A stretch of 64,000 nucleotides of DNA from Longimicrobiales bacterium (GCA_965202985.1 CBDBCF010000001.1:1664001-1728000); one strand, 5' to 3'. Counted from the first letter of the stretch, positions 923-48,155 are shown. Translations and numbers: made by a program. The notes: a model not told the origin generated them from the letters alone.

Positions 923-923
923 C

Positions 924-3121: not shown

Positions 3122-3153
3122 TCCCCCACGAGAACTCGCGCTGCGGGCCGTCG

Positions 3154-3639
3154 TCAGCCGTACGGCATGACCGGCGTCTTGCCCAAGAGGCGCGCGTACA
3201 CGGAGAGGGCGCCCCGGTGGTGGGCCGTGTGGTCCACGATCGCGGTCACGACGGCGGCCCGAGGCGCCCCGCCCATGATCCTGCGGTCGGGGATCGGCTC
3301 GCCCAGGGCACCGGCGGGCGCGGACTGGACGGCCTCCGCGGCGGCGCCGAACGCGCGCTCCAACCAAGCCGACGCCTCGGCAAGCGACGCCACTGCCCGA
3401 ACCTTGCTTTCCATGGTCGCGAAGTCCATGTCCCACCCTTTGCCGAAGGCCCCCTCCACGAACCAGTCGACGGAATCCGCCACATGGGCAACGTGGCCCG
3501 CCACCGTGAAGAGCTGCGGGTTGGGCGCGAACCCCGAGTCCTCTTCTCCGAACACGGAGAGCGTCTTCCGCAGGTACCCCAGGGACGTCTCGAGCTCCTT
3601 GACCAATGTCTTCGCGGGCGTTGCGTTCGTCGTCGTCAT
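3154..3639 (-). CDS. DinB family protein
   Basis: HVAHV and DHTAHHRG metal-binding His pattern; start taken at MTTTNA. Confidence 0.85.
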   Translation of the reverse strand: MTTTNATPAKTLVKELETSLGYLRKTLSVFGEEDSGFAPNPQLFTVAGHVAHVADSVDWFVEGAFGKGWDMDFATMESKVRAVASLAEASAWLERAFGAAAEAVQSAPAGALGEPIPDRRIMGGAPRAAVVTAIVDHTAHHRGALSVYARLLGKTPVMPYG

Positions 3640-3784
3640 GACTTCGGTCCTTTCGCAGGCGTGGCGGCTGCTTGCTGTTTGCGTCGCGACAGTCCACATT
3701 ATACGGTTCCAGCATATGGGCGCACACCGGGCGGCGCCCTCCCGGCAGCTGTCCCCGACGCCAAGGAGCCCTGCGTTGATCTCG

Positions 3785-4873
3785 ATGGAACGACTGAACC
3801 CGTGCGCCGACGGTCCCTTCCAGGCCGTCTTGCGGATCGAGCCTTCGGCGCGCTTCGACCTCATCGACGTGCGCGGCCGCGTGGAGCGCGAGTTCGGGAA
3901 GCTGTTCAGCCGGTTTCCCAAGGCCCTGTACGTGTCCGACCACACCACCGCCGGCTACTTGGACCAGCGCTTGGCGGAGCGTCTGAAGCACGACGGCCAG
4001 AACGTCCACAAGTTCCTGCAGCTCTTCCGCGAACTCTTCCCTCCCGGCGCCGGCTACGTTCACGACGAGCTTCACCTGCGCACGGAGCTTTCCGACGAGC
4101 AGCGCGCAAGCGAACCCAAGAACGCGGACTCCCACCTGACGTTCATGGGGGCGGGCCTGAAGAACTGCGTGTCGTACGAGCAGCGGGGCGACCTGCCCGT
4201 CTGGTTCGTGGAGCTGGACGGAGTGCACGACGCGGGCACCCGTTGTCGGCGGACGACGGTCGTGGGATACGGGGGCGAAGAGGAGGTCGCGCGGCTTACC
4301 GTAGAGGTCGAGGCGTCGCCCCACGCCATCGACGCGCGCAACCTGCGGGACCGCGAGTTCGGGTTCATGGACCGCCTGCGAGCGCTGGCCCGCGAGCACG
4401 ACGTGTCCTTCGGGCGGCTGGACGTGTCGCTTCCGCCCGAGGAAAGGCATGCCGGCCTGACGGTCAACGAGTACGAGACGCTGCTCATGACCCACGATCT
4501 GCGCGACGTGTTGGCCGACCCGTTGCGGTTCATGGCGGAGAGGGGCAAGAACGCGCTCCTCGACCCCAAAGCGATTCCCGCGAAGACGCTCAACTACGCC
4601 CAGTTCGACGCCGTCCTGATCCTGAACAAGCTCCTGGACCGCATGGGCGTGCGCCGCTCCGTCGTGGAGCGGATCGTGAATCGGGCCCTGGCGCTGCCCG
4701 TGTCGCACTTCCTGCGCATGAAGCGGCGGTTCAGCTTGCCCGTGCTGGACGCCCGTGGCGACGGAAACGGCATGATCCCCCGCGGCGCCTACCAGAGTCC
4801 GATCCTGGTCCAGTGGAGGGGCGCCGAGCGGCCCACGCGGGCCTTGGACGTGCGGCTGTACCGGTTTGTCTGA
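3785..4873 (+). CDS. Protein with two tandem YjbQ/UPF0047-like modules
   Basis: HTTAG...YVHD...NADSHL...ELDG..RR, then a second HAGLTVNE...GAYQSPILVQWRG module. Confidence 0.6.
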   Translation: MERLNPCADGPFQAVLRIEPSARFDLIDVRGRVEREFGKLFSRFPKALYVSDHTTAGYLDQRLAERLKHDGQNVHKFLQLFRELFPPGAGYVHDELHLRTELSDEQRASEPKNADSHLTFMGAGLKNCVSYEQRGDLPVWFVELDGVHDAGTRCRRTTVVGYGGEEEVARLTVEVEASPHAIDARNLRDREFGFMDRLRALAREHDVSFGRLDVSLPPEERHAGLTVNEYETLLMTHDLRDVLADPLRFMAERGKNALLDPKAIPAKTLNYAQFDAVLILNKLLDRMGVRRSVVERIVNRALALPVSHFLRMKRRFSLPVLDARGDGNGMIPRGAYQSPILVQWRGAERPTRALDVRLYRFV

Positions 4874-23782: not shown

Positions 23783-24481
23783 CTACCGTTCCATCGCGTC
23801 GAGCTTGGGGTCGAAGTTGTCAAACGCCGACCGCACCAGCAGGAAGCCGACGCCCAAAGCGACGCCGGCGACGACGAGCACTGCGCCGGTCGCGAGCGCG
23901 ACGAGCCGACCCGGGCCAGCCTCGAGTGCCCAGCGCGCCCAGTCTTCCGGAGTGCTGAGCACCTCGTCGGCCACCAGTGTTGCAAATATCATTACCGTCG
24001 CGAAGGTGGCTACCCGTTGCGGGCTGTACTTTGCCACGGCGCCCGTGGCCAGGCAGGCCAAGGAACCACCGACCAACCACACGGACAGTGCCGCGCCCAG
24101 CCCCCATTCGAGCCGGTCTTCCAGGCCGAGGGAAGGCGCTGCGGTCCGGCCCATGAGCACGCCGGCGACGGCGGCCATGGGCAGAATGAAGAGAAAGTTT
24201 GCCATGAACCGGGCGCCTGCGACGGTAGCGCCGCGCACCGGCAACGACGCAACAAACTCCATCGTCCCTTCCAGCTTGTCTCTCAGGGTCGCGCCGACAA
24301 CGGCGCCAGCCGGCACCGCGGTAGCAACCATCAGAAAAAAGACTACGGCTTCGGACGTGGCTTTGCCGATCGCGACGAAGACGGCCAGACCGACCACCAG
24401 CAGGCCGTAGGAACGCAAGGTCGGCGTGGTGGCCCGGCGGATTTCCAGTCGCAGAAGGCGGCTAGTCTTGGGAGGGATCAT
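23783..24481 (-). CDS. ABC-2 type permease
   Basis: About 6 TM segments, D..EGTMEFVASLPV motif; overlaps the ATPase gene. Confidence 0.8.
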   Translation of the reverse strand: MIPPKTSRLLRLEIRRATTPTLRSYGLLVVGLAVFVAIGKATSEAVVFFLMVATAVPAGAVVGATLRDKLEGTMEFVASLPVRGATVAGARFMANFLFILPMAAVAGVLMGRTAAPSLGLEDRLEWGLGAALSVWLVGGSLACLATGAVAKYSPQRVATFATVMIFATLVADEVLSTPEDWARWALEAGPGRLVALATGAVLVVAGVALGVGFLLVRSAFDNFDPKLDAMER

Positions 24482-25187
24482 GGGACTCCAGCGCTTCGTA
24501 CAAGATGCGGGAAAGGGGACTGTCGGGGTCGCGCCCCTGCAGTTCCTCCACGGATGCGTCGTCGACGAGCAGACCACGGCGAATCAAGACCACGCGATCT
24601 GCGATCTGCTCAATGTCTTCCAGGATGTGGCTGGAGAATAGGACGAGTCGTTCGCCGCCGCGTGGAACACAGTCGTTGATCACCGCCAGGAGCTGTCCGC
24701 GCATCAGGGGATCGATCGCCGAAGTCGGCTCGTCCAGGATCAGCACCGGTGGACGGTGGGCTTCGGCCGCCACCAAGGACAGCTTCACGCCCATCCCCTT
24801 CGAGAGTGTGCCGACCTTGGAATCCGACGGGAGCTCCAGCCGCCGAAGAAGATCTTGCGCGTACTCGTGATCCCACGACGGAAAGAACGTAGACAGGAAA
24901 GTGAGGTGCTCGGCCACGGTCATCCAGCCAAAGCCCTGCGCCTTCTCGGGAAGGAAGCCGATCTTCTCCCGGATCTCGGGCAGCTGGGAACGCACTTCGG
25001 CGCCGCCGACCTCCACTCGGCCGTCGTACTCTCTCGAACGGCCCCCGATTGCTTTCAGCGTGGTGCTTTTCCCGGCCCCGTTCGCGCCGATCATAGCCAC
25101 GCGCTCCCCTTGCCGTATGTGCAGGTTCATCGGCTCCAGGAAGAAGTTCGGAAAACGAACGCTGAAGTCCTTCAGGCGAATGTCCAT
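24462..25187 (-). CDS. ABC transporter ATP-binding protein
   Basis: GANGAGKST, LSKGM, LILDEPT, SSH. Confidence 0.9.
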   Translation of the reverse strand: MDIRLKDFSVRFPNFFLEPMNLHIRQGERVAMIGANGAGKSTTLKAIGGRSREYDGRVEVGGAEVRSQLPEIREKIGFLPEKAQGFGWMTVAEHLTFLSTFFPSWDHEYAQDLLRRLELPSDSKVGTLSKGMGVKLSLVAAEAHRPPVLILDEPTSAIDPLMRGQLLAVINDCVPRGGERLVLFSSHILEDIEQIADRVVLIRRGLLVDDASVEELQGRDPDSPLSRILYEALESHDPSQD

Positions 25188-25212
25188 GCGAGCATCCGGC
25201 GCGCGCGCCGGT

Positions 25213-25881
25213 CTAGAGGAGGAAAAGGCGGGCCATGCCCAGAGCAACGAGAATGAACCATAACAACGCGGCCAGGCCCGCCGCCGACCATCGGCCCAGA
25301 TCGACGACGCGTCGGAAGCCCATAAACAGAAAGACGAACCAGGCCGCGTGAAGCAGCGTGACGCTCTGAGCGGCGGCGGCGAGAACCGGCTGACTCGGCG
25401 TAACCAGAGCCCCCAGACCAAGGCCGGCCTGCAGATCCTGGGGAGATGCGACCGCTCCATCGCTCGTGAAGCGAAGGAGCACGGCTGTGGCTATGCCATG
25501 AGCGGCCAGGATGGCCTCCCCGTAGAGCAAGAGAGAGAAGATGCGGCGGAAGGGCCGGTCTGTGTTGGTCAGTACCAAGATCGCCCACGCCAACGCTGCG
25601 AACAAGAGCGCCTTGATTCCGTTCAGAACGGGTCCGGCCAAGGCCCCCAGCCATATCAAGACCTCTGCGAATGCGGCTTGCTCTCCGGACGTCGCAACCG
25701 CGACGAACGGGAGCAAAGCATATGCCGACGCCAGCGACAACAGCCAGGCCGCCGCGAGCGGCGCAAACACGGGCCGATGCTGCCGTATCTCGCCCATGCC
25801 CGGCACCAGAAGACTTCCGAATCTCTTGGCGCCTGCACCGAATCGCGTTGCGCCGATTGCGTTCAGGATCGTCATGTTCAC
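25213..25881 (-). CDS. Yip1-like membrane protein
   Basis: About 5 TM segments with P.F...AAWLL, FRRIFSLLLY and a terminal LFMGFRRV helix pattern. Confidence 0.6.
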   Translation of the reverse strand: MNMTILNAIGATRFGAGAKRFGSLLVPGMGEIRQHRPVFAPLAAAWLLSLASAYALLPFVAVATSGEQAAFAEVLIWLGALAGPVLNGIKALLFAALAWAILVLTNTDRPFRRIFSLLLYGEAILAAHGIATAVLLRFTSDGAVASPQDLQAGLGLGALVTPSQPVLAAAAQSVTLLHAAWFVFLFMGFRRVVDLGRWSAAGLAALLWFILVALGMARLFLL

Positions 25882-26402
25882 TCCTTGTCGTACCAGTGGA
25901 TGGTGGATTGAAGGTTGGCGACGATGGCGTGCCGGACGCTTCGGCCAACCTCTACGAATCGGACCGTGTCGCGCGCGTCCACCCAGAACGTGGTCGGAAC
26001 CGCGATCACGCCGAGCGCCTCTGCCAGCTCGCCGTCAACGTCGCGAACCGTTCTTCGGCGAAGAGACGGCGGTATCCACCGAGCCGAGTCCATGGCCGAC
26101 TTCGGTGAAGCGACAATCCATCGCTCGATCCGGGTCATCTCGGGCGTCATCGCCTCCCAGAGGTCGAGTTCAGCCTTGCAGTGCACGCACGCGCGGTCCA
26201 CGTACATGATCGCTGCCGGTCCCGCGATGCGCAAGTCGGCGCCTAGGGTCGCATTCCAAGACCAAGGCGGCTCGTTCGATCCCGCCTCCGGTGCCGATCG
26301 CCTGGCAAGAGCCGCGGGCAACAAGATCGCCGCTGCAATGCATGGAAGGATCAACCATGCCAGCAGCTTCTTCTTCCACACCGAGTGTTCTCCTGAGGTC
26401 AT
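25878..26402 (-). CDS. Membrane-anchored thioredoxin-fold (TlpA/redoxin-like) protein
   Basis: N-terminal TM, CVHC motif, D.DGELAEALGV.AVPTTFWVD; start uncertain (26402 or 26480). Confidence 0.75.
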   Translation of the reverse strand: MTSGEHSVWKKKLLAWLILPCIAAAILLPAALARRSAPEAGSNEPPWSWNATLGADLRIAGPAAIMYVDRACVHCKAELDLWEAMTPEMTRIERWIVASPKSAMDSARWIPPSLRRRTVRDVDGELAEALGVIAVPTTFWVDARDTVRFVEVGRSVRHAIVANLQSTIHWYDKE

Positions 26403-26508
26403 TTCGAAAGTTCCTCCTGACCAGAATGGTTCGTTCCCTGTTGGCCTGGGCGCGTCCGAAAAACGCGCCCAGGCCAACAAATGTGCGGCTATCCGACCTG
26501 ACGATGCC

Positions 26509-26766
26509 CTAGGCCCTGCAGGCTCGCTTGGCGCAGAACTCGATCGGAATCGGCAGCGACGAGGTCAACGCAAAAGCGACGCACGTGCCACACCGAACTG
26601 CTCTCCAGAACGACGACCCTCGGCCAACCACTTCCTCTTGGTGACCCGTGCCGATGCTCGCGGCGGCCGGGTGGTTTCCAGAAGAAACCTCGGGCCTGGG
26701 CGCTGCGACGAGGATCGAGACAGCCAGAGTGGCCACGATTGCCTTGCGAGAGACAAGACGCTTCAT
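26509..26766 (-). CDS. Putative secreted peptide precursor 3 (85 aa)
   Basis: AAAGGAG RBS; MKRLVSRKAIVATLAVSILVAAP...EEVVGRG-SSFWRAVRCGTC...CAKRACRA. Confidence 0.75.
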   Translation of the reverse strand: MKRLVSRKAIVATLAVSILVAAPRPEVSSGNHPAAASIGTGHQEEVVGRGSSFWRAVRCGTCVAFALTSSLPIPIEFCAKRACRA

Positions 26767-26801
26767 GTTTTGCTCCTTTCGATTGGTGAAGTGCGACGGA
26801 A

Positions 26802-27095
26802 CTAGCCGTACGCGCGATAGCAGGCTATGCCGCAAAAAATGATGGCTTCGGGAGCGAAGAATGCGAGCATCGCCAATCCGAAGACGCTCCCGCCTCCTGC
26901 AAACAAGACGGCTGTCAGGCACGCTACGCAGACAAACTTGTCGGGACCGAAGCCAACCGGGTCCTCGACGTCCTGTTCGACCCGAGGTACGTCGTCCGCC
27001 GCGGATGCAACGGAGCGATCTCCGAAAGACGCAGCGTGCGCGACGGCCAAGATGCCCAGGAGAGCCGTCGTCTTGCGCATTATGTTCGAAGTCAT
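26802..27095 (-). CDS. Putative secreted peptide precursor 2 (97 aa)
   Basis: AAAGGAG RBS; signal peptide; EDPVGFG-PDKFVCVAC...CGIACYRAYG. Confidence 0.8.
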   Translation of the reverse strand: MTSNIMRKTTALLGILAVAHAASFGDRSVASAADDVPRVEQDVEDPVGFGPDKFVCVACLTAVLFAGGGSVFGLAMLAFFAPEAIIFCGIACYRAYG

Positions 27096-27110
27096 TTCTC
27101 TCTCCTTTCC

Positions 27111-27392
27111 TTATGAAAACGCGTCGACACAGGCTGCGATGCAGCCCGCAGCAACCATGGTAGAGCCCGGGCGAGCACTGGCAACCAAGATGGCGCCCCA
27201 GCCACCCCAAACAACGGCCGCGGCGCCAACCGCGCAGGCCGCGCATCCCAGGGCGCTCCAGATTCCCGCGCCCGTGAAGTCTTCTGCGGCAATGTCGGAG
27301 GGGCTTCGAGTCTCGAACGTGGAGCCGATCTCGGTGCTTCCAGCGGTCAGCAGGGCGCACAGAACGAAGGTCCAAAGACGTGATTTCTTCAT
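27111..27392 (-). CDS. Putative secreted peptide precursor 1 (93 aa)
   Basis: AAAGGAG RBS; signal peptide; EDFTGAG-IWSALGCAAC...CIAACVDAFS. Confidence 0.8.
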   Translation of the reverse strand: MKKSRLWTFVLCALLTAGSTEIGSTFETRSPSDIAAEDFTGAGIWSALGCAACAVGAAAVVWGGWGAILVASARPGSTMVAAGCIAACVDAFS

Positions 27393-27656
27393 GTTTCTCT
27401 CCTTTTGTTGTCGAGTTGCGTGTTCACCAAGTTGGCGATCACGAAAGCCTGGTAAGGGCCGTACGAACCAACAGGTACGCTTTGGAGATCAGAAGCACTT
27501 GCGTAAGGACTGCCATGGAGATGTACATTGCGCTTTCCTTTCATTTGAGGCGCTGAATCGGAGCGCGTCCAGGCGCTCCAGTTGGCGACGCCGGCGATTC
27601 CGGCGACCGCGGGGGGCCGAGGCCCGGTTTCGATCTTCCTGCCAAGTTTCTTCGCG

Positions 27657-28298
27657 TCAGTCCATGGGCTTCCTCCTTTCCAGGGAGCGGGGTTCCGCGA
27701 CGGCTGGCGCAGCGGACGATCCGGTGCTTTCGCGGAGGACGACGGCCTCGCCCGACCAGATCTTGCTGAATGCGGTGTCGCCGATCGTGTAACGACCCAC
27801 TTGGGGGTCCAGCACGGTTACCCGACCATCGGGCGTCCACTCCGTGACTGTCACGAAGTGGCTCCTGCGGACCCAGGCGATGAAGGGCTTCGGAGTCTCC
27901 GCTATGCCGCCGCGTCGTAGGCGGTTCAGGGTGAGAGAGAGACCGAAGACCTCGGCTGCCCGGATCAACCCGCGGGCCCTCGTGCCCGTCGGTCCCGTGC
28001 CTGCCAGCGCGCCGAGCGAATCCGTGGCCGGCGTGTCCAAGCCCAGCACCTGGAACATGTTGGCGAGAGCGGCAGGACCGCAGTCGCTCAGCGTGGATTG
28101 CAGCACCATGCCTTCGCGTCCTTGGTAGGAGCCCCCGTCGGCTGCTACTTGAATCCGCGCCGCCCACCTGCCCAGGCGGGCAGGGTCCACTGCCAGAAGA
28201 GCTGTGGCAGCGACCGTGAGGACCAACCCCAGAAGGGTCGAGGCGGCGAGAGTCCGGCGGCGGGCCGAACGCGGGGTCTGCGGCTTGGGAGCGGGCAT
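27657..28298 (-). CDS. Stand-alone C39 family cysteine peptidase with N-terminal signal/TM segment
   Basis: Q....DCGPAAL, PFIAW...HFVTV, VLDP..G, F..IWSG; oxyanion Q and catalytic C/H/D intact; no ABC domain. Confidence 0.9.
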   Translation of the reverse strand: MPAPKPQTPRSARRRTLAASTLLGLVLTVAATALLAVDPARLGRWAARIQVAADGGSYQGREGMVLQSTLSDCGPAALANMFQVLGLDTPATDSLGALAGTGPTGTRARGLIRAAEVFGLSLTLNRLRRGGIAETPKPFIAWVRRSHFVTVTEWTPDGRVTVLDPQVGRYTIGDTAFSKIWSGEAVVLRESTGSSAAPAVAEPRSLERRKPMD

Positions 28299-28712: not shown

Positions 28713-29378
28713 CTAGAGCGCCTCCAGCGCGGCGAGGATGTCGGCGTTGGTGGGGCGAACCCGGTAGTCTTCCTCCACGAACCCCCAGCGCACGATCCCC
28801 TCCTGGTCGATCACGTAGGTGGCCGGGTGGGGTACGGGGCGGTTCGGGGGCGCGTCCGGGTTCAACAGGCCGTAGCGGTCGATCACCCGGTGGTCGGGGT
28901 CGGACAGCATGACGAAGTCAGGGGCCTCGCCTCCGTCGGCGACGATGCGGTCGATCATCAGCTGCTGCTTCTCGCGGTCGTCCACGGAGACGGCGACGAT
29001 CACGGTCTGGGCGGCGATCGCCGGGGGCAGCAGGTCTCTCAGCTCGCCGAGCTGACGGGCGCAGTGCGGTCACCAGTGTCCACGGTAGAAGACGAGGACC
29101 ACGTTCGCTGTGCCGCGGAAACCTGCCAGCTCCACGGTCTCGCCCCCGAAAGACTCCAGGGCGAAGAGCGGAGCCTCCGTGCCGGCCGACACCCGCTCCA
29201 AGTCCGTCGCGGGAAGGTCGTGGCCGTCGGTCGGCCCCAGGCTGGAGACTTGGGCCGAAGCCGTGCCGAAGCCGGGGAGTGCCCCGAGCACCGCGGCCAG
29301 GACGAGAGCGCGGGCGCCGTCTCGAAGGAGGCGCCGTGCGCGGAGGCGGGAGGTACTGAAGCAACGGGTCGAGGTCAT
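28713..29378 (-). CDS. Exported AhpC/TSA (peroxiredoxin-like) selenoprotein, UxxC active site
   Basis: ORFs 29070-29450 and 28713-29003 are in one frame across TGA 29070-72: VFYRGHW-U-PHC-ARQLGEL...AVSVD...LSDPD...HPATYVID. Confidence 0.85.
29039..29055 (-). promoter_or_regulatory. Putative bacterial SECIS hairpin
   Basis: UCAGCUC-GGC-GAGCUGA perfect 7-bp stem starting 14 nt after the in-frame UGA. Confidence 0.65.
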
Positions 29379-35941: not shown

Positions 35942-36691
35942 ATGACCGAACCCTCCGTCACCTCCGTCCCCGCAGTCGAGCAGGCGCGCGCCGCCGCGCC
36001 CGTCCGGCCCGCGCTCCGGTTCGAGGCCGCGTCCAAGATCTACCCGCGAGCCGGCGGAAGCCCGCTGATTGCGTTGCGGTCCGCAAGCCTGACGCTCGAA
36101 CTGGGGACGACGACCGCCGTGGTCGGGCGGAGCGGCAGCGGCAAGACCACCCTGCTCCACCTAGCGGCTGGAATCGACGTGCCCAGCCGGGGCCGCGTCG
36201 AGGTGCTGGGCCGTGACCTGAGCCGTCTGCGCGACCGGGAGCGGGCCGTCTTCAGGCGTGACCATGTGGGCATGGTGTTCCAGTTCTTCCGCCTGCTGGA
36301 CCACTTGACGGTGGAGGAGAACGTCACGCTGCCCGCCCGCATCGCCGGCGACCTGGGGCGACACAAGCGCCGGGCGCGGGAGCTGCTGGAGCGCGTCGGG
36401 CTGGCGTCTCGCGCCGCCGACCGGATCGACGGCCTGAGCGGCGGCGAGCAGCAGCGCGTCGCGATCTGCCGCGCCCTGTTGCGCCGTCCCTCCCTGCTGC
36501 TGGCCGACGAGCCCACGGGGAACCTGGACGACGAGTCGGCGGCCGTGGTCATGGACTTGCTGCTCGGCATCGCCAAGGAAGAAGGGAAGACGCTCCTGTA
36601 CGCGACGCACAGCGCCGGCGCCGCCGCCCTGGCCGAACGCAGGCTGACGCTGGCCAGCGGAGTTCTCGGGACGACGCCTCCGCGCCCGTGA
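35942..36691 (+). CDS. ABC transporter ATP-binding protein (LolD/AttE-like)
   Basis: GRSGSGKT, LSGGEQQRV, ADEPTGNLD. Confidence 0.92.
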   Translation: MTEPSVTSVPAVEQARAAAPVRPALRFEAASKIYPRAGGSPLIALRSASLTLELGTTTAVVGRSGSGKTTLLHLAAGIDVPSRGRVEVLGRDLSRLRDRERAVFRRDHVGMVFQFFRLLDHLTVEENVTLPARIAGDLGRHKRRARELLERVGLASRAADRIDGLSGGEQQRVAICRALLRRPSLLLADEPTGNLDDESAAVVMDLLLGIAKEEGKTLLYATHSAGAAALAERRLTLASGVLGTTPPRP

Positions 36692-39600
36692 TCGGGTACC
36701 TTCGCTTCGTCTTGCGCCGTCGGTTCGCGCGGGAGCCCGCGATGAGCCTTCTGACCTTGGCCGGCGTGGCGCTGGGGACCGGCTCCGTGGTCACGGTGCA
36801 GGTGTTGACGGAAGGGGCGGTCGCGGCGTTCGACGCGACGGTGGACCTGCTGGCGGGAGACGCGGACGCCCTGGTGCTGGGTCACGGCGGCAAGCTGGAC
36901 GAGTCCCTCTATCCCGTCGTCCTGGGCACGGAAGGCGTCGATTGGGCGTCGCCCCTCCTGGAGGGATCGGTCGTCGCACGACGGGCGGACGGAGAGCGAC
37001 GGGCGGACGGACAGGATCTCCCGCGGCCCGTCCCCCTGTACGGCGTGGACCTGTTGTCCTCTGTCGATGGCCCCCTGCATCCGTCGCCGGCAAACGGCGT
37101 CCAGCCTCCGGATCGCGCCCAGCCCTCCTCTTCCGACCTGCTCCGCGCCGCCGCTTCCGCCGACCTTGCCCGCGCCCTCGGCGTCGGCGCCGGCGACACC
37201 GTTGAAGTGGCCCAGGGACCGGCGTGGACGCCCGTCGCCCTCGATCGTGTGCTGGACGCGACCTCCCGCGCTTCGGCCGAAGGTCCCCTGCTGGTGATGG
37301 ACATCGCCGACGCCCAGGACCTCTTGGGCAGAGCCGACTGGATCAGCCGCGTCAACGTTCGCTTCCGCCCCGACGTGCCCGCCGACACGGTTCGGCGCCG
37401 CCTCGCTTCTCGACTGGACGGCCGCGCGCTCGTTTCTTCGCCCGGGGGTCAGCGCGCCGAGGCCCGCCGGCTCCTGTCGGCGTTTCGCGTCAACCTGTCG
37501 GCGCTTGCCTTCACGTCGGTCTTCGTCGGTCTCTTCCTGGTGTACGGCACCACGCGCGCCTCCCTTTCCCGACGACGCCGCGAGACCGGCCTGCTTCGAA
37601 GCCTGGGAGCGACTCGAAGCCAAGTCCTGGGCGCAACGCTGGCGGAAGCGGGCGTCCTGGGCGTGGCGGGCGCGGCCCTGGGAGTGCCTTTGGGGTACGC
37701 CGCCGCCCTGGCCAACTTGGACTCGGTGAGCGGCACGGTGACCGACCTCTACCTGCTGTCGGCGATTCGGAGCTTGGAAGTGCCCCCGCACGTGTGGCTC
37801 CTGGCACTGGCGGGCGGATTGCTCGGGACGATCGCCGGCGCCGCAGGACCTGCCGCCGAGGTCTGCCTTGCCCCGGCGGCCGACCTGCTCTCCGACCAGC
37901 GAGCGCGCGTCCGCTGGCGGTCGGTCTCGAAGACGCTTTGGCGGGCGAGCTGGGCCGTGCTGGCGGTTCTGCTGACGTGGTTCGCCGTCGGAGGCCACCG
38001 CTGGCGCCACGCGGGGTTCGTGTTGGCGGCGGGGATCATGGTCTGGACGGCGTTGGCGGCGCCCGCCTTCGTGACGGGACTGTGCCGACTGGCGGGGCGT
38101 TCGCGGGGGTTCGGCTGGCGCTTCGCCCTGGGCGGCCTACCCGTTCGCCTTCACACTTCGGGCGTGGCGGTGGCCGGCGTGGCCGTCGCCTTCGCCATGC
38201 TGGTGGGGACCACCGTCATGGTCGGCAGCTTCCGCGACACCTTCCGGGCCTGGCTGGACGCCACGATGCTGGCCGACGTGTACGTGTCCGCGGCAGCGTG
38301 GACGGGCGCGACCGACCAGGGGGGCGTGCACGGCGACCTGCTGGACCAGCTCCGGCGGCTGCCCGGCGTGGCCGCCGTGGGTCGGCTGCGAGGTTTCCAC
38401 GGCTACGCGGACAACTTGCCGGTGGCGCTTCGCGGCATCGACGCCCGGCCAACCGGGCCGACCGGAGCGCGGCACAGGGACCGCCTACTACTAAAGGAGG
38501 GCGACCCGGAGACGGTGGCGGCGGAGCTGGCGGACGGGGCGGTTGCCGTCAGCGAGCCGCTGGCGCGCCGGGCGGGCGTCCGACGGGGCGACTCGATTGC
38601 GGTGCGGACGGCCTCGGGCGCCGTTCGAGCAGCGGTAGCCGGCGTCTACTACCAGTACGGCACGGACCGAGGTTCGATCTCCATGGACTTGGCCACGATG
38701 GAGGCGTGGTTCGGACCCGGCGCGCCTCATGGACTGGCGGTCTACCTGGACCGGGTCCGGCGAACGGACGCGGGCGACGACGACACAGACGCGGGCGGCG
38801 CGCAGGCCGGCGTCGTCCAAGCGGTTCGACAGGCGGCGACGCCGTACCCGGTCGTCGTGCGTACTCACGGCGCCCTGCGGACCGACGCGCTTCGCATCTT
38901 CGACCAGACCTTCGCGGTCACGCTGCTCCTGCAGGCGATGGCGCTGGCCGTGGCCGCCGCGGGCGTGGCCCTGTCGCTCTTGGTCATGGCCCGAGAGGAA
39001 GCTTGGGACACCGCCACCTGTCGGGCCCTGGGCGCCACCCGCGGCCAAGTCTTTCGGTTCCATCTGGGCAAGGGCGCGGGGTTGGCCGGCATCGGCGGCC
39101 TGCTGGGCTTGGCGGGCGGCGCCGGACTGGCCGCAGTTCTGATCTACGTGACCAACCGAGCCTACTTCGGCTGGACGGTGCAGTTCGGCGTGCCCGCGTT
39201 CAGCCTTGCCCAGCAGTGCGCCTTCCTGCTGCTGGCCGCCGTGGCGGCGTCTTGGTGGCCGGCCCTCCGAGCGTCCGGCGGAGGGGGCGCCCTGGCGCGA
39301 CGATCCGTCGTGGCGGCGGTCGTGGCTGCGCTGTCGCTCGCCGCGTGCTCGCCCCCGCCGGAGTCCGATTCCGATCCCCCAAACGGCCGCGGTCCTTCGG
39401 CGCTGCCCGATGCGGTCGCGGAAGGCTGGCTCGCGGCAGACCCCGACTACTCGTGGTCGTTCCCCGAAGACCACGGACCCCACTTCGGCTACAAGACCGA
39501 GTGGTGGTACTTCACCGGCGTGTTGTCCACACGGGCGCGAGAGTTGGGCTACCAGTTCACGATCTTCAAGATCGGGTTGCGCCCGCCCCGCCCGGAACGC

Positions 39601-40620
39601 GACGCGCCCCCACCGACGAGCGCGCCCGTCCCGCCCTCCCGCTGGACCGCGTCGGCGTTGCTCCTGGGGCACATGGCCGTCAGCGACCCCGCCGAAGGCA
39701 CGCACGTCTTCTCGGAGGTGCTGTACCGGGCCGGCCCTCTTGCGCCCGGCGCCCCCTCGCCTACCGCCGAGCCGACCCCCGACGCCCGTCCAAGCGACAA
39801 CTCGGCCAGCGCTGCAGGCGGCCCCCTCCTGGCCGGCTTCGGCGCGGCCCCTGGCGGATCGATCGACGCCTCCACCTCCCGCATCCCCGTCGCATGGAGT
39901 CGCGGCCCTCCCGGAACCTTCTCGCCATGGCGCCTGGACCTCCTGCGCGACGGCTTCGCGCTCGCGGCTGCCGACGATGCGGCGGACATCGCCCTCTCGC
40001 TCGTCGTCCGGCCCACGCGCCCCGTCGTGTTCCAAGGTCCCAACGGTTACAGCCGCAAGTCCGCCGAACCGGGCCGCGCCAGCATGTACTACAGCCGCCC
40101 GCGCCTGACCACGACCGGGACCGTCCGCTTGGGCGCCGCCCGCTATGCCGTCGCCGGCGTCAGTTGGATGGACCACGAGTTCAGCTCCGAACCCCTGGCG
40201 CCCGAGCAGGTCGGCTGGGACTGGCTGAGCCTGCGCCTGACCGACGGCGTCGACGTGACCGCGTTCCAGCTCCGCCGCTCCGACGGCCGCGCCGACTACC
40301 AAGCCGCGACCCTGGCCGCGTCCTCCGACCCGCCTCGTCACTTGGCGCGCAACGAATGGTCGATGACTCCCGGCGCGACGTGGACCAGCCCCGCCACCGG
40401 CGCGACCTACCCGGTCGAGTGGACCCTGGCGCTGCCGGGACGGATCGGGCGCATCGTCGTTCGCGCCGCCTTCCCGTCCCAAGAAAACGTGTCGCTCCGC
40501 GTGGCGAACCTTCACTACTGGGAAGGATTGGTCCGCGCGTTCGACCCCGACGGTCGACAGATAGGCGAAGGCTACTTGGAGATGACGGGCTACGGCGAGG
40601 GGAGCCGCCCGGCGCTGTGA
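36688..40620 (+). CDS. FtsX/MacB-like ABC permease (AttF/G-like) fused to a CrtC/AttH lipocalin-like domain
   Basis: Two RSLGATR/RALGATR FtsX motifs; then LAAC, FPEDHGPH..YKTEWWYFTG, SMYYS, WMDHEFS, GWDW, YWEG, GYLEMTGY. Confidence 0.85.
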   Translation: MIGYLRFVLRRRFAREPAMSLLTLAGVALGTGSVVTVQVLTEGAVAAFDATVDLLAGDADALVLGHGGKLDESLYPVVLGTEGVDWASPLLEGSVVARRADGERRADGQDLPRPVPLYGVDLLSSVDGPLHPSPANGVQPPDRAQPSSSDLLRAAASADLARALGVGAGDTVEVAQGPAWTPVALDRVLDATSRASAEGPLLVMDIADAQDLLGRADWISRVNVRFRPDVPADTVRRRLASRLDGRALVSSPGGQRAEARRLLSAFRVNLSALAFTSVFVGLFLVYGTTRASLSRRRRETGLLRSLGATRSQVLGATLAEAGVLGVAGAALGVPLGYAAALANLDSVSGTVTDLYLLSAIRSLEVPPHVWLLALAGGLLGTIAGAAGPAAEVCLAPAADLLSDQRARVRWRSVSKTLWRASWAVLAVLLTWFAVGGHRWRHAGFVLAAGIMVWTALAAPAFVTGLCRLAGRSRGFGWRFALGGLPVRLHTSGVAVAGVAVAFAMLVGTTVMVGSFRDTFRAWLDATMLADVYVSAAAWTGATDQGGVHGDLLDQLRRLPGVAAVGRLRGFHGYADNLPVALRGIDARPTGPTGARHRDRLLLKEGDPETVAAELADGAVAVSEPLARRAGVRRGDSIAVRTASGAVRAAVAGVYYQYGTDRGSISMDLATMEAWFGPGAPHGLAVYLDRVRRTDAGDDDTDAGGAQAGVVQAVRQAATPYPVVVRTHGALRTDALRIFDQTFAVTLLLQAMALAVAAAGVALSLLVMAREEAWDTATCRALGATRGQVFRFHLGKGAGLAGIGGLLGLAGGAGLAAVLIYVTNRAYFGWTVQFGVPAFSLAQQCAFLLLAAVAASWWPALRASGGGGALARRSVVAAVVAALSLAACSPPPESDSDPPNGRGPSALPDAVAEGWLAADPDYSWSFPEDHGPHFGYKTEWWYFTGVLSTRARELGYQFTIFKIGLRPPRPERDAPPPTSAPVPPSRWTASALLLGHMAVSDPAEGTHVFSEVLYRAGPLAPGAPSPTAEPTPDARPSDNSASAAGGPLLAGFGAAPGGSIDASTSRIPVAWSRGPPGTFSPWRLDLLRDGFALAAADDAADIALSLVVRPTRPVVFQGPNGYSRKSAEPGRASMYYSRPRLTTTGTVRLGAARYAVAGVSWMDHEFSSEPLAPEQVGWDWLSLRLTDGVDVTAFQLRRSDGRADYQAATLAASSDPPRHLARNEWSMTPGATWTSPATGATYPVEWTLALPGRIGRIVVRAAFPSQENVSLRVANLHYWEGLVRAFDPDGRQIGEGYLEMTGYGEGSRPAL

Positions 40621-43278: not shown

Positions 43279-46200
43279 TCAGCCCGAAGAACCACCGTCG
43301 CCAACCACTCCCGACAGGATCGTGCCGATGTAGGAGTCGCGTTCCTCTTTCTGGAAGACGACGTTTCGCTTCTTCAACCAGGACTTTTCACGGCCCCAGC
43401 GCTTCTTGACCTCCCGAGAGGACGACACGGACACGATGTAGGAGTTCAGCACCATGTTCGGGTCGCCGAGGCGTTCCTCGATCTCCTTGATCGTCTTGTG
43501 GAATTCGACCTTCTCGTTGTCCACGCCCAGCTGAACAAGCCCCTTCGGGTCGACGAAGGTGACGTACTGCCGACCGCTGGCCAGCAGCCAGAGAATGAAG
43601 TCCGGGTGGAAGTTTCCCGCCTCGAAGAAGCCGATTCCCCGGCCCCGGCTCAAGTTGCGCAGCAGGTAGAGTTCCCTGTCCTTGAAGAAGTTCGAGTTGC
43701 CTTCGCAGTACGCCTTCAAGTCTTCTACGAAGCGGCGCTCGCCCCGATTGAGCGGCGCCGGCTCCACCTCCACCACTCCTGCGCCGTCCACTGCGAGCAA
43801 CGGCGTGTAGAGGTGACGGTCGAAGGACAGCCCGTGGAGACCGAGGCCGGGGAAGGCCCAATCCTTGAGGTCGCCCCTCTCTATCGCTGCTTCCACCTTC
43901 CTCAACGTCGCGACGATATCCTCCTTCGACTTGTCGACGGCGATCCGATAGCCGTACTCGCCGCTCTTCTCACGGACCATGGGAAAGTTGGCGTCGCTGG
44001 CGGTTACTTCAGCGTACTCCAAATGGCGTCGCTCCCAGTCGTTCTTGCGGAAGGTGTAGTAGCGCTCGACGTACTTCTTGAGCAGGGCGAGCGCAATCTG
44101 GTCCCAAAGCCGAACCTTGTCGAAGGAGTCGGCGACCATCTGGGATTCGGGGATCAGCAGGCGATACCATTTGCCGTCTTCAAGCAACTCGTGGATGGCC
44201 GTGCGGGACACGGACAGGTTGTGCCAGCCACGCTCGCTTTTGAAGCGTTCCAGTTCGAAGTAGAGGCGGTCCAGGTCGAGGAAGGCGGTGTGCACTTCCT
44301 CCAGTTTGGCCTCGTGCTTCTCGGCGACGGCCTCCACGTCGGACAGCTCCTCCGACTTCATCGCCTTGATCTTCGGATACCAGTCGAGGACGACCCGTTC
44401 GTGCAGGTAGCTCCTAGCCGGATCGTCCGACGCCATGCCGCCCAGGCTTCGCAGGACCGGCATCGGGCCCAGCTTGCGGAAGGCGTCGCCCGACTCGACC
44501 CTGACGCCGTTGATGACCTTCTTGAGCCGGATCGTCTTGAGCGGCTGCCTTCCGAGGTTCTTGACCACCGGGAACCAGAAGTCCTCCTGCTCGTTGTCGA
44601 CCGACAGTCCTTCCTCGGCGAGAAAGTCCCGAAACTGCGCCATGTAGTCGGCGCGGACTCCGAAGACGTGAAGCGTCTCCAGCGTCTCGACGAAGTCGGG
44701 CCGTTTCAGCCCCTCCGGCAGCTGCGCCCGTGCGCTCCGCTTGAGGCTCATGTCGCATCCCTTGAGCCGCACGCCGCGACCGAAGAGCTGGATGATCTGC
44801 GCCCCTTCCGACTTGCCGATGTGCATCAGCCCCATCGTGCTGACTCGCCAGCTGTTCCATCCTTCGGTGAACTTGCGGGAGCCGATGAGCAGGTTCACGG
44901 TTGAGCCGGGGTTGGCCAAGTCGTGAAAGAGAGAGTCCCCGAACTCCCGCTCGGCGACGGCGAACCCGCTCTGATCGCAGAGCTTCACGAGCTTGGCGTC
45001 GTCGCCCACGTTTACCACGCCGAAGGGGTCGTTGTCGCCCACGCGCAACGCCACTTCACCGGCGGCTCCCTTGAGGTTCTCCACATGCAGCAGCCCGCCG
45101 TTCGGGGCGTTGAAAAGCACCTCCAGCGTCTCGTCGAACACCTGCTCGGCCGACAAGCCAGCATCGTGGAGGTGAGCGAAGCGCCCGGTGAAGATCTCCT
45201 GCTGTTCCGAGTTGCCCAGTCCCTCGTCCAGAATCTCCCGGATGCGGCGGATGCTTTCCGAGCGGTCGGCCACGTAGTCGGCAAGGAAGCGCAGAATCGC
45301 CACCACGTCCGACGCCTCCCGCTTGGACAGGCTCTTGGTGACGCTGCCGCCCACGAACACCCACAGCGGCCGCTCCAAGTTGAAGCGCCGTAGCGTGGAC
45401 TCCTGGTCGCGGTAGAGTCGCTGCTGCTGAAAGAACACGAGCAGGCAGGCGGTAAGGTAGCCCGCCTGCCACTCGGCGTCGCGGTCGTCCTCCAAGTTTA
45501 GAATCCGGTAGTCCTTGCCGAATCCGTCGCCGTAGAACCACTGGTAGGAGTAGTCGAACAACGTGCTGCGGGCGTACAGGTTGGCCAGTTTCGCGCGATT
45601 CGTCCCCCTGACCGCTTGCCCGAACGTGGCCGAGTACTCGAAGGAGAACCCCTTCTCGCAGAGGCGCTCCCGGAAGCGCATCCAAGCGCCGCCCTTGCTG
45701 CTCGCGGCGGTCGCGGCGCCGCGATGCCCCTCGTCGACCAGCACCAAGTTGTTCCCCTCGAAGGCGTCGACGGCGACGGTCTTGTCTCCCATGTCGTCTT
45801 TCAGCTTGGTGACTTCCAGAATATCGACGGTCTGCCCGGTGAAGAGCCCCAAGGAGGCGTTCTTGTCGAAGATGCGGGCCGGGATGCCCGCCGTCTCGAA
45901 CTCGCGCAGGTGCTGGCGCGACAGCCCCTCGTTCGGCGTCAGCAAGATGACGCGGTTGAGGTCGCGTGCGCGGCCGTGGATGTCGAGCAGCTCCAAGTAC
46001 CGAAGAAGGTGAGCGTGCATGAGGAGCGTCTTGCCGCTGCCGGTGGCCATCCAGAACGCCACCTTGTTCAGCTGCTGCCGGGCGTCGGCGGCTTCGTCCA
46101 GCGGCTCCACGCGGTCTCGCTTTCGGACGCCTTCGTTGAACTGGGCGATGTGCCCGTTCACCGCCTCCAGCGTTTGCCGAGGCCGGTTGAAGTACCAGTC

Positions 46201-46554
46201 CAGGTATATCTCCGTGAAGAGCAGCGCGAGGTACTGGAAGTACTTCCACGAGATGGGGCGCAGGCCCCGCGTGATGCGACGTTCGTTGAGGTGCCGGGTC
46301 ACCGACGTGATCGCCTGGTCGTGCGCCAGGAGCACGTCGTCCGGCAGGTTCGGTCGGCGCCCCGCCGGCAGGTGCAGACACAGCGCACGGTGGAAGCGGT
46401 GGACGTTGTCTTCGTCCAACCCTTCAAGGGACTCGTCCCGCAGGTGGCTAGCGAGGTCGTCGAAGCGGTCGACGCCCAAGAGGCCCAGAAGCCACTGGTT
46501 CAGTACCAGTCGCTTGGGGAAGAGGGCGTGCTGGCGACGGCCCACGCCAGCCAT
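43279..46554 (-). CDS. res: Type III restriction-modification system Res subunit (SF2 helicase/nuclease)
   Basis: MATGSGKT, DEGH, YSAT, EGWN, QLFGRGVR, C-terminal PDF...DPK nuclease motif. Confidence 0.9.
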   Translation of the reverse strand: MAGVGRRQHALFPKRLVLNQWLLGLLGVDRFDDLASHLRDESLEGLDEDNVHRFHRALCLHLPAGRRPNLPDDVLLAHDQAITSVTRHLNERRITRGLRPISWKYFQYLALLFTEIYLDWYFNRPRQTLEAVNGHIAQFNEGVRKRDRVEPLDEAADARQQLNKVAFWMATGSGKTLLMHAHLLRYLELLDIHGRARDLNRVILLTPNEGLSRQHLREFETAGIPARIFDKNASLGLFTGQTVDILEVTKLKDDMGDKTVAVDAFEGNNLVLVDEGHRGAATAASSKGGAWMRFRERLCEKGFSFEYSATFGQAVRGTNRAKLANLYARSTLFDYSYQWFYGDGFGKDYRILNLEDDRDAEWQAGYLTACLLVFFQQQRLYRDQESTLRRFNLERPLWVFVGGSVTKSLSKREASDVVAILRFLADYVADRSESIRRIREILDEGLGNSEQQEIFTGRFAHLHDAGLSAEQVFDETLEVLFNAPNGGLLHVENLKGAAGEVALRVGDNDPFGVVNVGDDAKLVKLCDQSGFAVAEREFGDSLFHDLANPGSTVNLLIGSRKFTEGWNSWRVSTMGLMHIGKSEGAQIIQLFGRGVRLKGCDMSLKRSARAQLPEGLKRPDFVETLETLHVFGVRADYMAQFRDFLAEEGLSVDNEQEDFWFPVVKNLGRQPLKTIRLKKVINGVRVESGDAFRKLGPMPVLRSLGGMASDDPARSYLHERVVLDWYPKIKAMKSEELSDVEAVAEKHEAKLEEVHTAFLDLDRLYFELERFKSERGWHNLSVSRTAIHELLEDGKWYRLLIPESQMVADSFDKVRLWDQIALALLKKYVERYYTFRKNDWERRHLEYAEVTASDANFPMVREKSGEYGYRIAVDKSKEDIVATLRKVEAAIERGDLKDWAFPGLGLHGLSFDRHLYTPLLAVDGAGVVEVEPAPLNRGERRFVEDLKAYCEGNSNFFKDRELYLLRNLSRGRGIGFFEAGNFHPDFILWLLASGRQYVTFVDPKGLVQLGVDNEKVEFHKTIKEIEERLGDPNMVLNSYIVSVSSSREVKKRWGREKSWLKKRNVVFQKEERDSYIGTILSGVVGDGGSSG

Positions 46555-46599
46555 CAGCTGATGTCCGCTAGGCGGCCGACCGAACTCGCAGGGACCAGT

Positions 46600-47040
46600 T
46601 GACGGTCATCAATGACCGCCAAAGTAGTCTTGGCGGCCATGAAACGCCGCAAATGGCCGACAAGTTGATTTCGCGGCCATGCGTGACCGCCAAGACGGCT
46701 ACGCGGCCACGAAGCGTCGAAAGTGGCCGGCAAGCCAGCTTCGCGGCCATGCGTGACCGCCAAGAGCTGGAAGTGGCCATGAAACGCCGTAAGTGACTGC
46801 CGAACGAACTTCGCGGCCATCGGTGGCCACCAAGACGGCCGTGCGGTCACGAAACGCCAGAAATGACCGCAGAGCCGATTTCGCGGCCATCCATGACCGC
46901 CAAGACGGCCCAAGCGGTCACGAAGCGTCGAAAGTGGCCGGCAAGCCAGCTTCGCGGCCATGCGTGACCGCAAAGAGCCGGAAGCGGCCACGAAACGCCG
47001 CAAGCGACCGCCGAACGAACTTCGCGGCCATGCGCGACCG
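46600..47040. repeat. Intergenic tandem array of about 6.3 units of 70 bp, each with two inverted-repeat pairs
   Basis: TTCGCGGCCAT anchors at 46670, 46740, 46810, 46880, 46951, 47021; about 210-bp higher-order periodicity. Confidence 0.92.
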
Positions 47041-48153
47041 TCAGAAGACATCCTTTCCCTCGGCAGCGTTCAGGAGGTCCGGGAACATCAGAATGGTTCC
47101 CCGGCGACCATTGGAGGGATGGAGGACGCGCAGCACGCCGTGGTCAGCCAGCTTCGCCAGGAGCCGTCGGGCCGTGCGAGCCGGGATTTCCGCGTCGGCT
47201 GAGAACCGGGCGCTGTTAAATATCGGATGTTCGAAGATCCAGTCTAGTGTTCGAATGGCGTACTGGGAGCGAGTAACGTCCGCCACCCGCCCTTTCATCT
47301 TGTCGTAGAGGTCAAGGATGTCTCTGGCCTTCGCAAGGTTCTCCTCGGCCTGGGCGTGCACCGCTTTCAAGAAGAACCGACACCACCCCGTCCATTCGTC
47401 GTCGCGCGAAACGGCGAGCAGCCCTTCGTAGTACTCGGCACGACGAGCTTCAAAGTAGGCGCTGATGTAGAACATCGGCCGGCTGATCAGCCCCTGTTCC
47501 GACAAGAACAACGGCACCAACATGCGACCAAGGCGGCCATTGCCGTCCAGGAATGGGTGAAGAGACTCGAATTCGGCGTGGAGCACGGCGAGCTGCACCA
47601 GCTTATCGGGCACTTCGGTGTGGATGTAGCGCTCCCAAGCATCCATGGCCGCCGGCAGCAGCTCAGCGCCAATGGGCACAAAGGTGGCATCCTCTACCGT
47701 ACATCCGGGCCGACCGATCCAGTTAGGAATACGCCGATACTCGCCTGGCGCCTTGCCCTCGCCCCGCACGCTCGAGAGCAGCACTCGATGCGCTTCGCGT
47801 ATGACTCGCTGGCAAAGCGGAAGCTGCTGTAGCATCTGCTCGGCCCGCCTCATGGCGTTGCGATAGTTGATCACCTCGCGGATGTCGTCTCTTCGCCTTG
47901 GAGACGCCGCCTCCTTACCGGCCTCGAATTCGAAGACCTCGCCCATGCTTGCCTCGGTACCCTCGATCTTGGACGACAGAACCGCTTCTTGCATGGTCAA
48001 CGGCGTAAGCAGGACGCGCGGACTGGGAATAGCGGCCAGCATCCCGTCGTACCTGGCCACCGCGGCCACGGCCGGACCAATCAGCGGGAGCACAGCGGAC
48101 CAGTCAATTCGATTCTCGGGCGGAAACTTTCCTTCGTGATAGTGCGTCGCCAT
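47041..48153 (-). CDS. Fic family protein with N-terminal DUF4172-like region and C-terminal HTH
   Basis: EAVLSSKIEGT, HPFLDGNGRLGR. Confidence 0.92.
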   Translation of the reverse strand: MATHYHEGKFPPENRIDWSAVLPLIGPAVAAVARYDGMLAAIPSPRVLLTPLTMQEAVLSSKIEGTEASMGEVFEFEAGKEAASPRRRDDIREVINYRNAMRRAEQMLQQLPLCQRVIREAHRVLLSSVRGEGKAPGEYRRIPNWIGRPGCTVEDATFVPIGAELLPAAMDAWERYIHTEVPDKLVQLAVLHAEFESLHPFLDGNGRLGRMLVPLFLSEQGLISRPMFYISAYFEARRAEYYEGLLAVSRDDEWTGWCRFFLKAVHAQAEENLAKARDILDLYDKMKGRVADVTRSQYAIRTLDWIFEHPIFNSARFSADAEIPARTARRLLAKLADHGVLRVLHPSNGRRGTILMFPDLLNAAEGKDVF

Positions 48154-48155
48154 GA

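Follow-up and report, generated by a model that had tools for sequence, protein, structure and literature searches.

The locus described here raises the question of what is made by an operon that sets a stand-alone C39 cysteine peptidase beside several short, cysteine-containing peptides. The operon consists of eight co-oriented genes on the minus strand, at 23783-28298 of a 64-kb stretch of DNA from a Longimicrobiales bacterium (the window, meaning the whole stretch that was analysed), in the order C39 peptidase, three precursors, redoxin, Yip1, ABC ATPase and permease. We conclude that it probably encodes an undescribed family of bacteriocin-like antimicrobial peptides. This view is carried by a processing site shared among the precursors, by the disappearance of that site together with the peptidase in genus g59, and by the retention of the gene set in related genomes. 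All eight genes were present where the initial annotation had placed them, each precursor preceded by AAAGGAG. The features of the operon are as follows.

27657..28298, minus strand: stand-alone C39 cysteine peptidase, 213 amino acids (aa); PF03412, 75.5 bits
27387-27405, 27090-27108 and 26761-26779, minus strand: three similar ribosome-binding/start segments, AAAGGAG...ATG, ahead of the precursors
27111..27392, minus strand: precursor A (conserved type), 93 aa
26802..27095, minus strand: precursor B (conserved type), 97 aa
26509..26766, minus strand: precursor of variable type, 85 aa
26439..26479, minus strand: 17-bp RNA hairpin, perfectly paired, after the last precursor and ahead of the redoxin gene, z -5.5
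25878..26402, minus strand: membrane-anchored thioredoxin-fold protein (redoxin), 174 aa, with CVHC and a Val-Pro cis-loop; AhpC-TSA and DsbE matches below cut-off
25213..25875, minus strand: Yip1/YknW-like multi-pass membrane protein, 220 aa; PF04893 E 5e-5 and NF052650 E 6e-8, both below cut-off
24462..25187, minus strand: ABC ATPase of PmtA/DrrA (ABC-2 exporter) type, 241 aa; PF00005, and NCBIfam PmtA E 5e-40, below cut-off
23783..24481, minus strand: ABC-2-type permease, 232 aa; PF12698 E 9e-6, below cut-off

The three precursors share one layout, in which a signal-like N-terminus and an acidic spacer precede a hydrophobic core. In precursor A the predicted cut follows Ala42, and the core (from nt 27266) is 51 aa long and neutral, with C50, C53, C84 and C88. 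Precursor B, directly after A, has its predicted cut after Phe49 and a neutral core of 48 aa (from nt 26948) with C56, C59, C88 and C92. The variable-type precursor, with a predicted cut after Arg49, has a shorter, cationic core (36 aa, +4, from nt 26619) carrying C59, C62, C78 and C83. The window precursors' leaders are thus 42-49 aa long. The spacer ends EDFTGAG, EDPVGFG and EEVVGRG read exactly as first described, as do the CxxC and Cx3-4C pairs, but Cx4C is limited to the third peptide. A lipoprotein signal for precursor A was rejected, as there is no lipobox at Cys12.

We then collected related precursors. From 139 candidates, 129 were kept and 10 dropped as artefacts, mis-parsed, frameshifted or from outside the phylum. 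To be extracted, a candidate had to show a signal-like start, two or more Cys and [VILFT]-x-G, so these traits are not independent in the set; Cys spacing was not imposed. CxxC...Cx3C was found in 108/108 four-Cys cores; just two Cys are present in 20/129 precursors, for the most part on separate helices. The cores span 33-56 aa and are very hydrophobic (median grand average of hydropathy, GRAVY, 1.33), the spacers are acidic, and GxxxG motifs occur in about two thirds of the cores. The family site reads [VIL]-x-G-x followed by G (81 of 129) or Q (44), with the predicted cut after G-x; it lies 28-73 aa from the start, behind the signal-like segment. What had been called a GxG site is a site of double-glycine type, and the predicted cut falls inside GxG.

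An independent test set was provided by 32 homologues found by phmmer with no motif or signal filter. [VILF]-x-G-x-[GQ] preceded the first core Cys in 28 of them, compared with a mean of 1.6 and a maximum of 6 in 1,000 shuffles. By a heuristic, 31/32 had a basic-then-hydrophobic N-terminus, against 125/618 background open reading frames (ORFs), which agrees with the signal-like N-termini noted at the outset. In one B precursor the leader, LTRTELERIEGG, is canonical and gives sub-threshold matches to those of BlpC and lactococcin G-beta. The A and B profiles are homologous (hhalign probability 98%), and A stands immediately before B in all 33 loci with two long cores (33/40 loci overall). The remaining precursors are shorter and variable; in genome G002, three tandem paralogues have leaders 88-93% identical and cores 38-49% identical.

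The link between peptidase and site came from genus g59. One genome (G141) is intermediate, with a leaderless A (52 aa), a B that has its leader, and an intact C39. In G259 and G269 both A and B are leaderless (48-52 aa), and no PF03412 match was found in these single-contig, ~95% complete genomes; the 3' end of the C39 gene survives in both, and its anchor-coding 5' part in G269 as well. The redoxin, Yip1 and ABC genes are kept, and the remaining signal-bearing peptides lack the G-x motif. Leaderless A and B start within ~2 residues of the predicted cut, with the first Cys at 9-10 (A) and 6-7 (B), compared with 8 and 8-9 after the predicted cut in leadered forms. Two more 52-aa leaderless proteins were found in the database. 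This joint loss of the leader and the C39 catalytic domain, a single event in a single lineage, ties the peptidase to the predicted cut site, and we consider it very likely that C39 cuts at G-x. The earlier suggestion that C39 matures the peptides at GxG thus gains a link between enzyme and site, with the cut itself predicted between G-x and the following G. An extra peptide in g59 operons consists of a signal, a Gln and then a hydrophilic core with four Cys, and it lacks a GG-type site (L044 8231-8804, L154 6804-7055, L155 about 6124-5890).

The window C39 protein has an Arg-rich N-terminal tail, a hydrophobic anchor at about 19-37, an amphipathic helix at 39-53 and then the C39 domain, and it ends with a stop directly after that domain, with no fusion to an ABC exporter. 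Q67, C73, H147 and D164 are invariant in 21/21 aligned homologues. The AlphaFold model (pLDDT 89) matches the peptidase domains of PCAT1, ComA and LahT, which are also nearest in sequence. In family f1, the 38 C39 matches lie in open frames of 209-517 aa, compared with >700 aa for peptidase-containing ABC transporters (PCATs). We surveyed the N-termini of 48 homologues (one more, lacking the catalytic Cys, was left out), of which 45 were full-length at this end. A hydrophobic segment lay 34-39 residues before the catalytic Cys in 42/45, and its N-side was the more basic in 41/45; the C-side was more basic in none. This positive bias on the N-side points the domain outward, and C39 likely acts outside the cytoplasm. 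The N-terminus reads more like a membrane anchor that stays uncleaved than like a free-export signal, and C39 is probably anchored, not released, so that the idea of an exported enzyme may hold for its orientation but probably not for its release. An RR pair near the anchor in 35/45 homologues, with no clear consensus, makes Tat export possible. The FilB model scored 16 bits on the window C39, compared with 42 for a PCAT model. In a C39 tree the operon enzymes lay on one side of a branch (87/98) that was not starred, which neither shows nor rejects a single origin.

To place the operon in its wider distribution, we scanned GTDB genomes with the C39 alignment and obtained 46 loci, 41 of them titled as Gemmatimonadota lineages. 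In 33 of these 41 the order was that of the window, with C39, redoxin, Yip1, ATPase and permease all present alongside two or more precursors; the synteny that was to be sought in other genomes was found. Three of the eight incomplete loci are at a contig edge, four are without one gene (tblastn, E 1e-3) and one has a single precursor by the filter. Operons carry 2-6 precursors. Flanking genes differ between lineages, so the conserved unit comprises the operon genes only. The conserved neighbours of the 41 loci included no tailoring enzyme, glycosyltransferase, metal-resistance gene, assembly ATPase or sensor kinase, in keeping with the reported lack of radical SAM, YcaO and lanthipeptide enzymes.

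Of 401 sampled genomes of the order, 45 were matched by the precursor-A profile (37 in family f1 and 8 weakly in f3) and 40 by the C39 profile at E 1e-25. Precursor and C39 lay within ~2 kb of each other in 35 genomes, that is, in 35/37 f1 genomes with a precursor match, which bears out the expected co-occurrence. Three f1 genomes with C39 and no listed precursor did contain precursors on inspection. The eight weak f3 matches (E 2e-5 to 9e-4) were treated as chance; two were checked and had no operon. Presence is patchy, at 21/51 genomes in genus g52 and 0/16 in g6, and phylum-wide C39 occurred in 22/401 genomes from five families (E 1e-22). As related genomes are not independent, all these counts are descriptive and not tests. 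A similar kit was found on a Fidelibacterota (Marinisomatota) contig (L186; G470, 148-4513), with a redoxin split into two ORFs, an anchored C39, two membrane proteins, an ABC ATPase, Yip1, and a signal-bearing two-Cys precursor whose spacer ends DVVGG. A further stretch, L066 6833-9000, was grouped with L186 as the Fidelibacterota version of the kit.

We next considered the remaining genes. The redoxin carries CxxC, mostly C-x-[H/Y/F]-C, in 37/42 loci (four had no redoxin match and one no motif), with the Val-Pro loop in 33 of the 37, and it is anchored in the same way as C39. The CVHC redoxin of the first description probably faces outward, with its motif intact in most loci. Yip1 is below cut-off in the window and above it in L186. 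The operon genes, searched against Pfam at E up to 1, gave no SpoIIM/DUF95 match, and they include no glycosyltransferase. In 24/36 loci the last detected precursor has a stem of 10 bp or more after it, compared with 2/88 positions after other precursors; this survey covered loci with a redoxin match, and one locus was skipped because of a long gap. The sequence of the hairpin varies between loci and its position is constant, which would fit abundant peptide transcripts and scarcer machinery. The 17-bp hairpin likely makes the precursor transcript more stable or brings about its partial termination. A promoter scan was uninformative, and among the sequencing runs none was listed for RNA.

Structure and family searches matched the precursors to no known group. 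In the AlphaFold model of precursor A (pLDDT 73, pTM 0.44), a signal helix is followed by a loose spacer and then by three core helices (helices at 3-17, 43-63, 65-73 and 77-92), with CxxC in the first core helix and Cx3C in the last. From this helix geometry, nested pairing C1-C4 and C2-C3 between the first and last core helices may be proposed, and disulfide formation in the cores is likely. The three window precursors matched no Pfam or NCBIfam family, and searches of 32 A members against Pfam and of 31 B members against Pfam and NCBIfam returned scattered weak matches only; two of the 31 B members matched a copper-chaperone model far below cut-off. Against the PDB, no sequence match fell under E 0.04. 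Fold searches have little power on short helices: run on the precursor model, Foldseek gave no match and VIA-align a best Z of 5.4 to unrelated helical bundles, results that show neither a new fold nor the absence of a saposin-like fold. The ESM Atlas gave for A only leads below 0.9, including a weak lead to class IIc cyclic bacteriocins (0.76), and no usable match for B.

From these observations we propose the following mechanism, to which, taken whole, we give a little more than an even chance. The precursor, as its sequence reads, is a signal-like N-terminus, an acidic spacer, a [VIL]-x-G-x site before G or Q and a CxxC...Cx3C core. Sec would export it across the inner membrane, with removal of the signal. 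The membrane-anchored, probably periplasm-facing C39 would then remove the spacer after G-x, as the co-loss strongly suggests, and the anchored redoxin may form or shuffle the nested disulfides between the first and last helices. The products would be membrane-active antibacterial peptides, in which the conserved A+B pair may act jointly and the variable, expanding set may add diversity. Finally, Yip1 and the ABC-2 exporter would pull mature peptides from the producer's inner membrane, for release, self-protection or both. The Yip1+ABC module, the diversified G002 cores and the hairpin after the last precursor are bacteriocin-like traits that favour this mechanism.

Several observations weigh against it. 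An antibacterial role for the cores, which we judge somewhat more probable than the contrary, is drawn from context only. The A and B cores are about neutral (charge -3 to +3), unlike typical cationic bacteriocin cores, and they show higher conservation than their leaders do (0.42 against 0.33, and 0.36 against 0.29), unlike fast-changing bacteriocin cores. At the cut site, the -1 residue is G, A or S in only 88/129 precursors, with R, Q, T and M common, and A and B of the window carry F or P at -4. The best NCBIfam match of the redoxin is of the reductive DsbE type, so it may act in either direction, oxidising or reducing. The locus encodes no exit through the outer membrane: none of the conserved neighbours of the 41 loci is an outer-membrane channel, an adaptor, a small immunity gene or a regulator. 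TolC-type genes are present elsewhere in the genome, outside the operon. Topology and signal calls come from hydropathy and charge heuristics. Lastly, the persistence of leaderless A and B means that Sec export is dispensable or that the route differs, and the proposed mechanism does not fully explain how cores function with no signal peptide. The original proposal of Sec export is accordingly backed by the signal-like N-termini, but not as an obligatory step, as leaderless A and B keep redoxin, Yip1 and ABC.

Other explanations were weighed against the same data. In one of them the "signal" would only tether the precursor, C39 would cut on the cytoplasmic face, and a PmtA-like ABC exporter with Yip1 would export the mature amphipathic core, as with phenol-soluble modulins or leaderless bacteriocins. 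The retention of ABC, Yip1 and redoxin beside leaderless A and B, the PmtA match of the ATPase and the closeness of C39 to cytoplasmic PCAT domains in sequence and fold all agree with this. The charge bias of the C39 anchor, N-in in 41/45, does not, nor does the position of the cut site, which an N-in hydrophobic segment precedes; related C39s are put outside by lipoprotein and fused forms, the g59 operon also holds Cys-rich peptides that have a signal only, and FapD is a proven periplasmic C39 (PMC5557850). We regard this arrangement as unlikely. FapD bears also on the idea, no more likely, that the cores serve as structural subunits (a helical protein of pilin-like, coat-like or envelope-lining kind) matured as in Fap/Fil, as this one characterised periplasmic C39 is needed for fibre secretion (PMC5557850). 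A and B are constrained, neutral and always adjacent (33/33 loci with two long cores), and they are probably made in excess. Yet no outer-membrane barrel or assembly ATPase is found among the conserved neighbours, the Yip1/ABC-2 kit and the diversifying cationic paralogues speak against subunits, presence is patchy (21/51 in g52), and fold searches, weak for short helices, linked the cores to neither pilins nor coat proteins.

Metal sites can arise where CxxC and Cx3C sit on adjacent helices. The four Cys might bind a soft metal (Cu, Zn or Hg), with the redoxin keeping them reduced and ABC/Yip1 exporting the loaded peptide. The DsbE-type match of the redoxin and the two sub-threshold copper-chaperone matches among B members are consistent with this, but 20/129 precursors have only two Cys, the conserved neighbours lack metal-resistance genes, and proteolytic maturation with paralogue diversification would be unexpected; we consider metal binding improbable. 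A role as signals (pheromones), between cells or towards a host, seems more improbable again. Double-glycine leaders also mark the BlpC and ComC pheromones, and weak leader matches were found here, but no sensor kinase or regulator is conserved nearby and the cores are long and very hydrophobic for such a role. Our preferred reading remains that of exported, disulfide-closed antibacterial peptides.

Other loci from the same scans also pair an exported or anchored stand-alone C39 with proteins in which a signal is followed by a canonical GG leader. Three loci of family f2 (L159 3073-10395 in G202, L160 in G213 and L024 in G057) combine an anchored C39 with such precursors, whose N-terminal helix is Cys-free and amphipathic and whose tail is acidic; TolC, membrane fusion protein (MFP) and MacB-type genes follow in L159 and L160. 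In L137 (6001-9921), an RHS protein with a GG-type leader behind a signal or transmembrane (TM) segment lies beside a lipoprotein TPR-C39, and in L138-L145 and L148 RHS-type proteins with a GG-type leader are fused to a TPR-C39 module, an arrangement that suggests self-release at the GG site. One fused protein reads TPR-C39-TM-basic loop-TM-GG, a topology that places C39 and the GG site on the same side. L067 encodes a Cys-rich protein with a signal and canonical GG leader near an exported C39 (72-629 and 1581-2312). No signal-plus-GG protein was found in the PCAT loci scanned, most of which were stretches of only ~3 kb. With L149 and L150, L067 forms a group of loci from unrelated organisms in which Cys-rich or other exported proteins with a signal and canonical GG leader lie near exported C39s. 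A glutaminyl cyclase with a lipoprotein-like N-terminus (PF05096, 293 bits) is encoded at G000:C1:2494022-2494717 (L188); pyroglutamate formation on cores with Gln at +1 (44/129) was suggested and not used as evidence, as the Q-rule is reported not to apply across the whole FCB group.

The setting of the operon was also examined. Its GC content is 0.62-0.64, compared with 0.70-0.72 in the flanks, and among the operon genes only the ATPase has a paralogue elsewhere in the genome. AAAGGAG occurs at six minus-strand sites in the window, four of them within 26779-27679. Across the 3.86-Mb genome, 18 of 13,668 ATG-started ORF candidates of 55-130 aa matched CxxC...Cx2-4C, amounting to ~12 distinct short ORFs, three of which are the tandem precursor genes. 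Between C39 and the first precursor lies an AT-richer gap of ~260 nt (27393-27656), where same-genus genomes have extra precursors; a 51-codon ORF at 27389-27544 was not taken as a gene (third-position GC 0.50, no recognisable features). An upstream selenoprotein gene and a downstream MMPL gene were excluded from the operon, as they adjoin only part of the loci. The former (28713-29378, minus strand) encodes an AhpC/TSA redoxin with a signal peptide and an in-frame TGA in W-U-P-H-C, likely a selenoprotein (UxxC); its downstream part is conserved beside the operon in 21/41 loci, a single lineage. Elsewhere, a lower-GC island (43282-53066) carries a type III restriction-modification pair (Res 43282-46554, methylase 48159-51566), a Fic protein and a helix-turn-helix/IrrE-like protein; a further methylase lies at 60047-61651, and 36688-40617 (plus strand) is a single 1310-aa frame with MacB/FtsX permease and CrtC/lipocalin domains, possibly a true fusion.

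Among known systems, the class II double-glycine bacteriocins and class IIa microcins share with the operon the C39 Cys/His/Asp triad, a GG/GA-type site, several precursors and unmodified cores with disulfides, which here are predicted (PMC10233263). Thermophilin 13 clusters likewise carry thiol-disulfide oxidoreductases, and in some strains a separate C39-like protein that is likely non-proteolytic (PMC10059821). In the operon, by contrast, C39 is separate and anchored rather than a cytoplasmic transporter domain, a Sec-type signal precedes a GG-type site with a relaxed -1 residue, and Yip1 and ABC-2 stand in place of MFP/TolC or a small immunity gene; MFP, TolC and PCAT together form the class IIa microcin export set (PMC10233263). 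The operon has the active C39 residues of class II, but not the PCAT fusion, the N-terminal 15-18 aa GG/GA leader or MFP/TolC. It resembles a class II double-glycine system with the transporter taken apart, yet as judged by this comparison it falls outside the class.

A stand-alone extracytoplasmic C39 with Sec-exported substrates, as proposed here, is found in Fap (FapD; PMC5557850) and in Acinetobacter Fil (FilB, NF050078). FapD acts within the periplasm, its target was left unclear and its class was called uncharacterised (Rouse et al. 2017, PMC5557850). Such an enzyme is therefore not new in itself, and that part of the novelty first attached to the locus falls away. Unlike Fap, the operon has no FapF-type outer-membrane barrel in its eight genes or conserved neighbours, and its products are short, hydrophobic, Cys-stapled helices rather than Asn/Gln-rich amyloid repeats (PMC5557850); unlike both Fap and Fil, it adds a redoxin, Yip1 and ABC genes.

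Yip1 and ABC exporters recur in circular and leaderless bacteriocin clusters, which share with the operon ~50-aa helical hydrophobic cores as well (PMC8659200, PMC11580447, PMC10707071). The likeness to leaderless bacteriocins is limited to A and B of genus g59, as the window precursors have long leaders. Compared with circular bacteriocin clusters, the operon lacks SpoIIM/DUF95 and a PH-domain protein, has a dedicated peptidase and a redoxin, and belongs to a diderm host; the core ends would be joined by two predicted disulfides rather than by a peptide bond, and the A/B cores are neutral. Sublancin and other glycocins are helix-loop-helix peptides with two nested disulfides from clusters with a C39 and a thiol-disulfide oxidoreductase, much as predicted here, but with Cx6C instead of Cx2C/Cx3C, a glycosyltransferase and a PCAT, and the Sec-type signal is a feature of the operon. 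The class IIb two-peptide bacteriocins consist of two homologous precursors encoded side by side in fixed order, like A and B, and have GxxxG motifs; the predicted maturation route and disulfide clamp of the operon differ.

A survey of marine Gemmatimonadota lists lasso peptides, Nif11-type bacteriocins and microcins, and the term "C39" is absent from its main text (PMC11316326). We found no published description of the cluster in the literature searched, which covers few subscription journals and no supplements. All parts of the system are known; the peptide family and the combination of genes appear new. More tentatively, at somewhat less than an even chance, the operon may represent a new class of ribosomal antimicrobials of diderm bacteria, the disulfide-closed counterparts of circular bacteriocins, with a split Sec/C39/Yip1-ABC-2 pathway, an occurrence in at least two phyla and a passage from leadered to leaderless forms in g59.

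The operon gives the FapD-like class of periplasmic C39 peptidases a short and obvious candidate substrate. As the candidate substrate and cut site are backed by the co-loss, the question of what these peptidases do becomes testable with one enzyme and one 90-residue peptide. The family also offers more than 100 natural peptide cores, unrecognised by Pfam and NCBIfam and from a little-cultured phylum, that could be synthesised and oxidised with no tailoring enzyme. Finally, the g59 series makes visible a route from leadered peptides to leaderless ones, and may provide a handle on the role of Yip1 in bacteriocin clusters.

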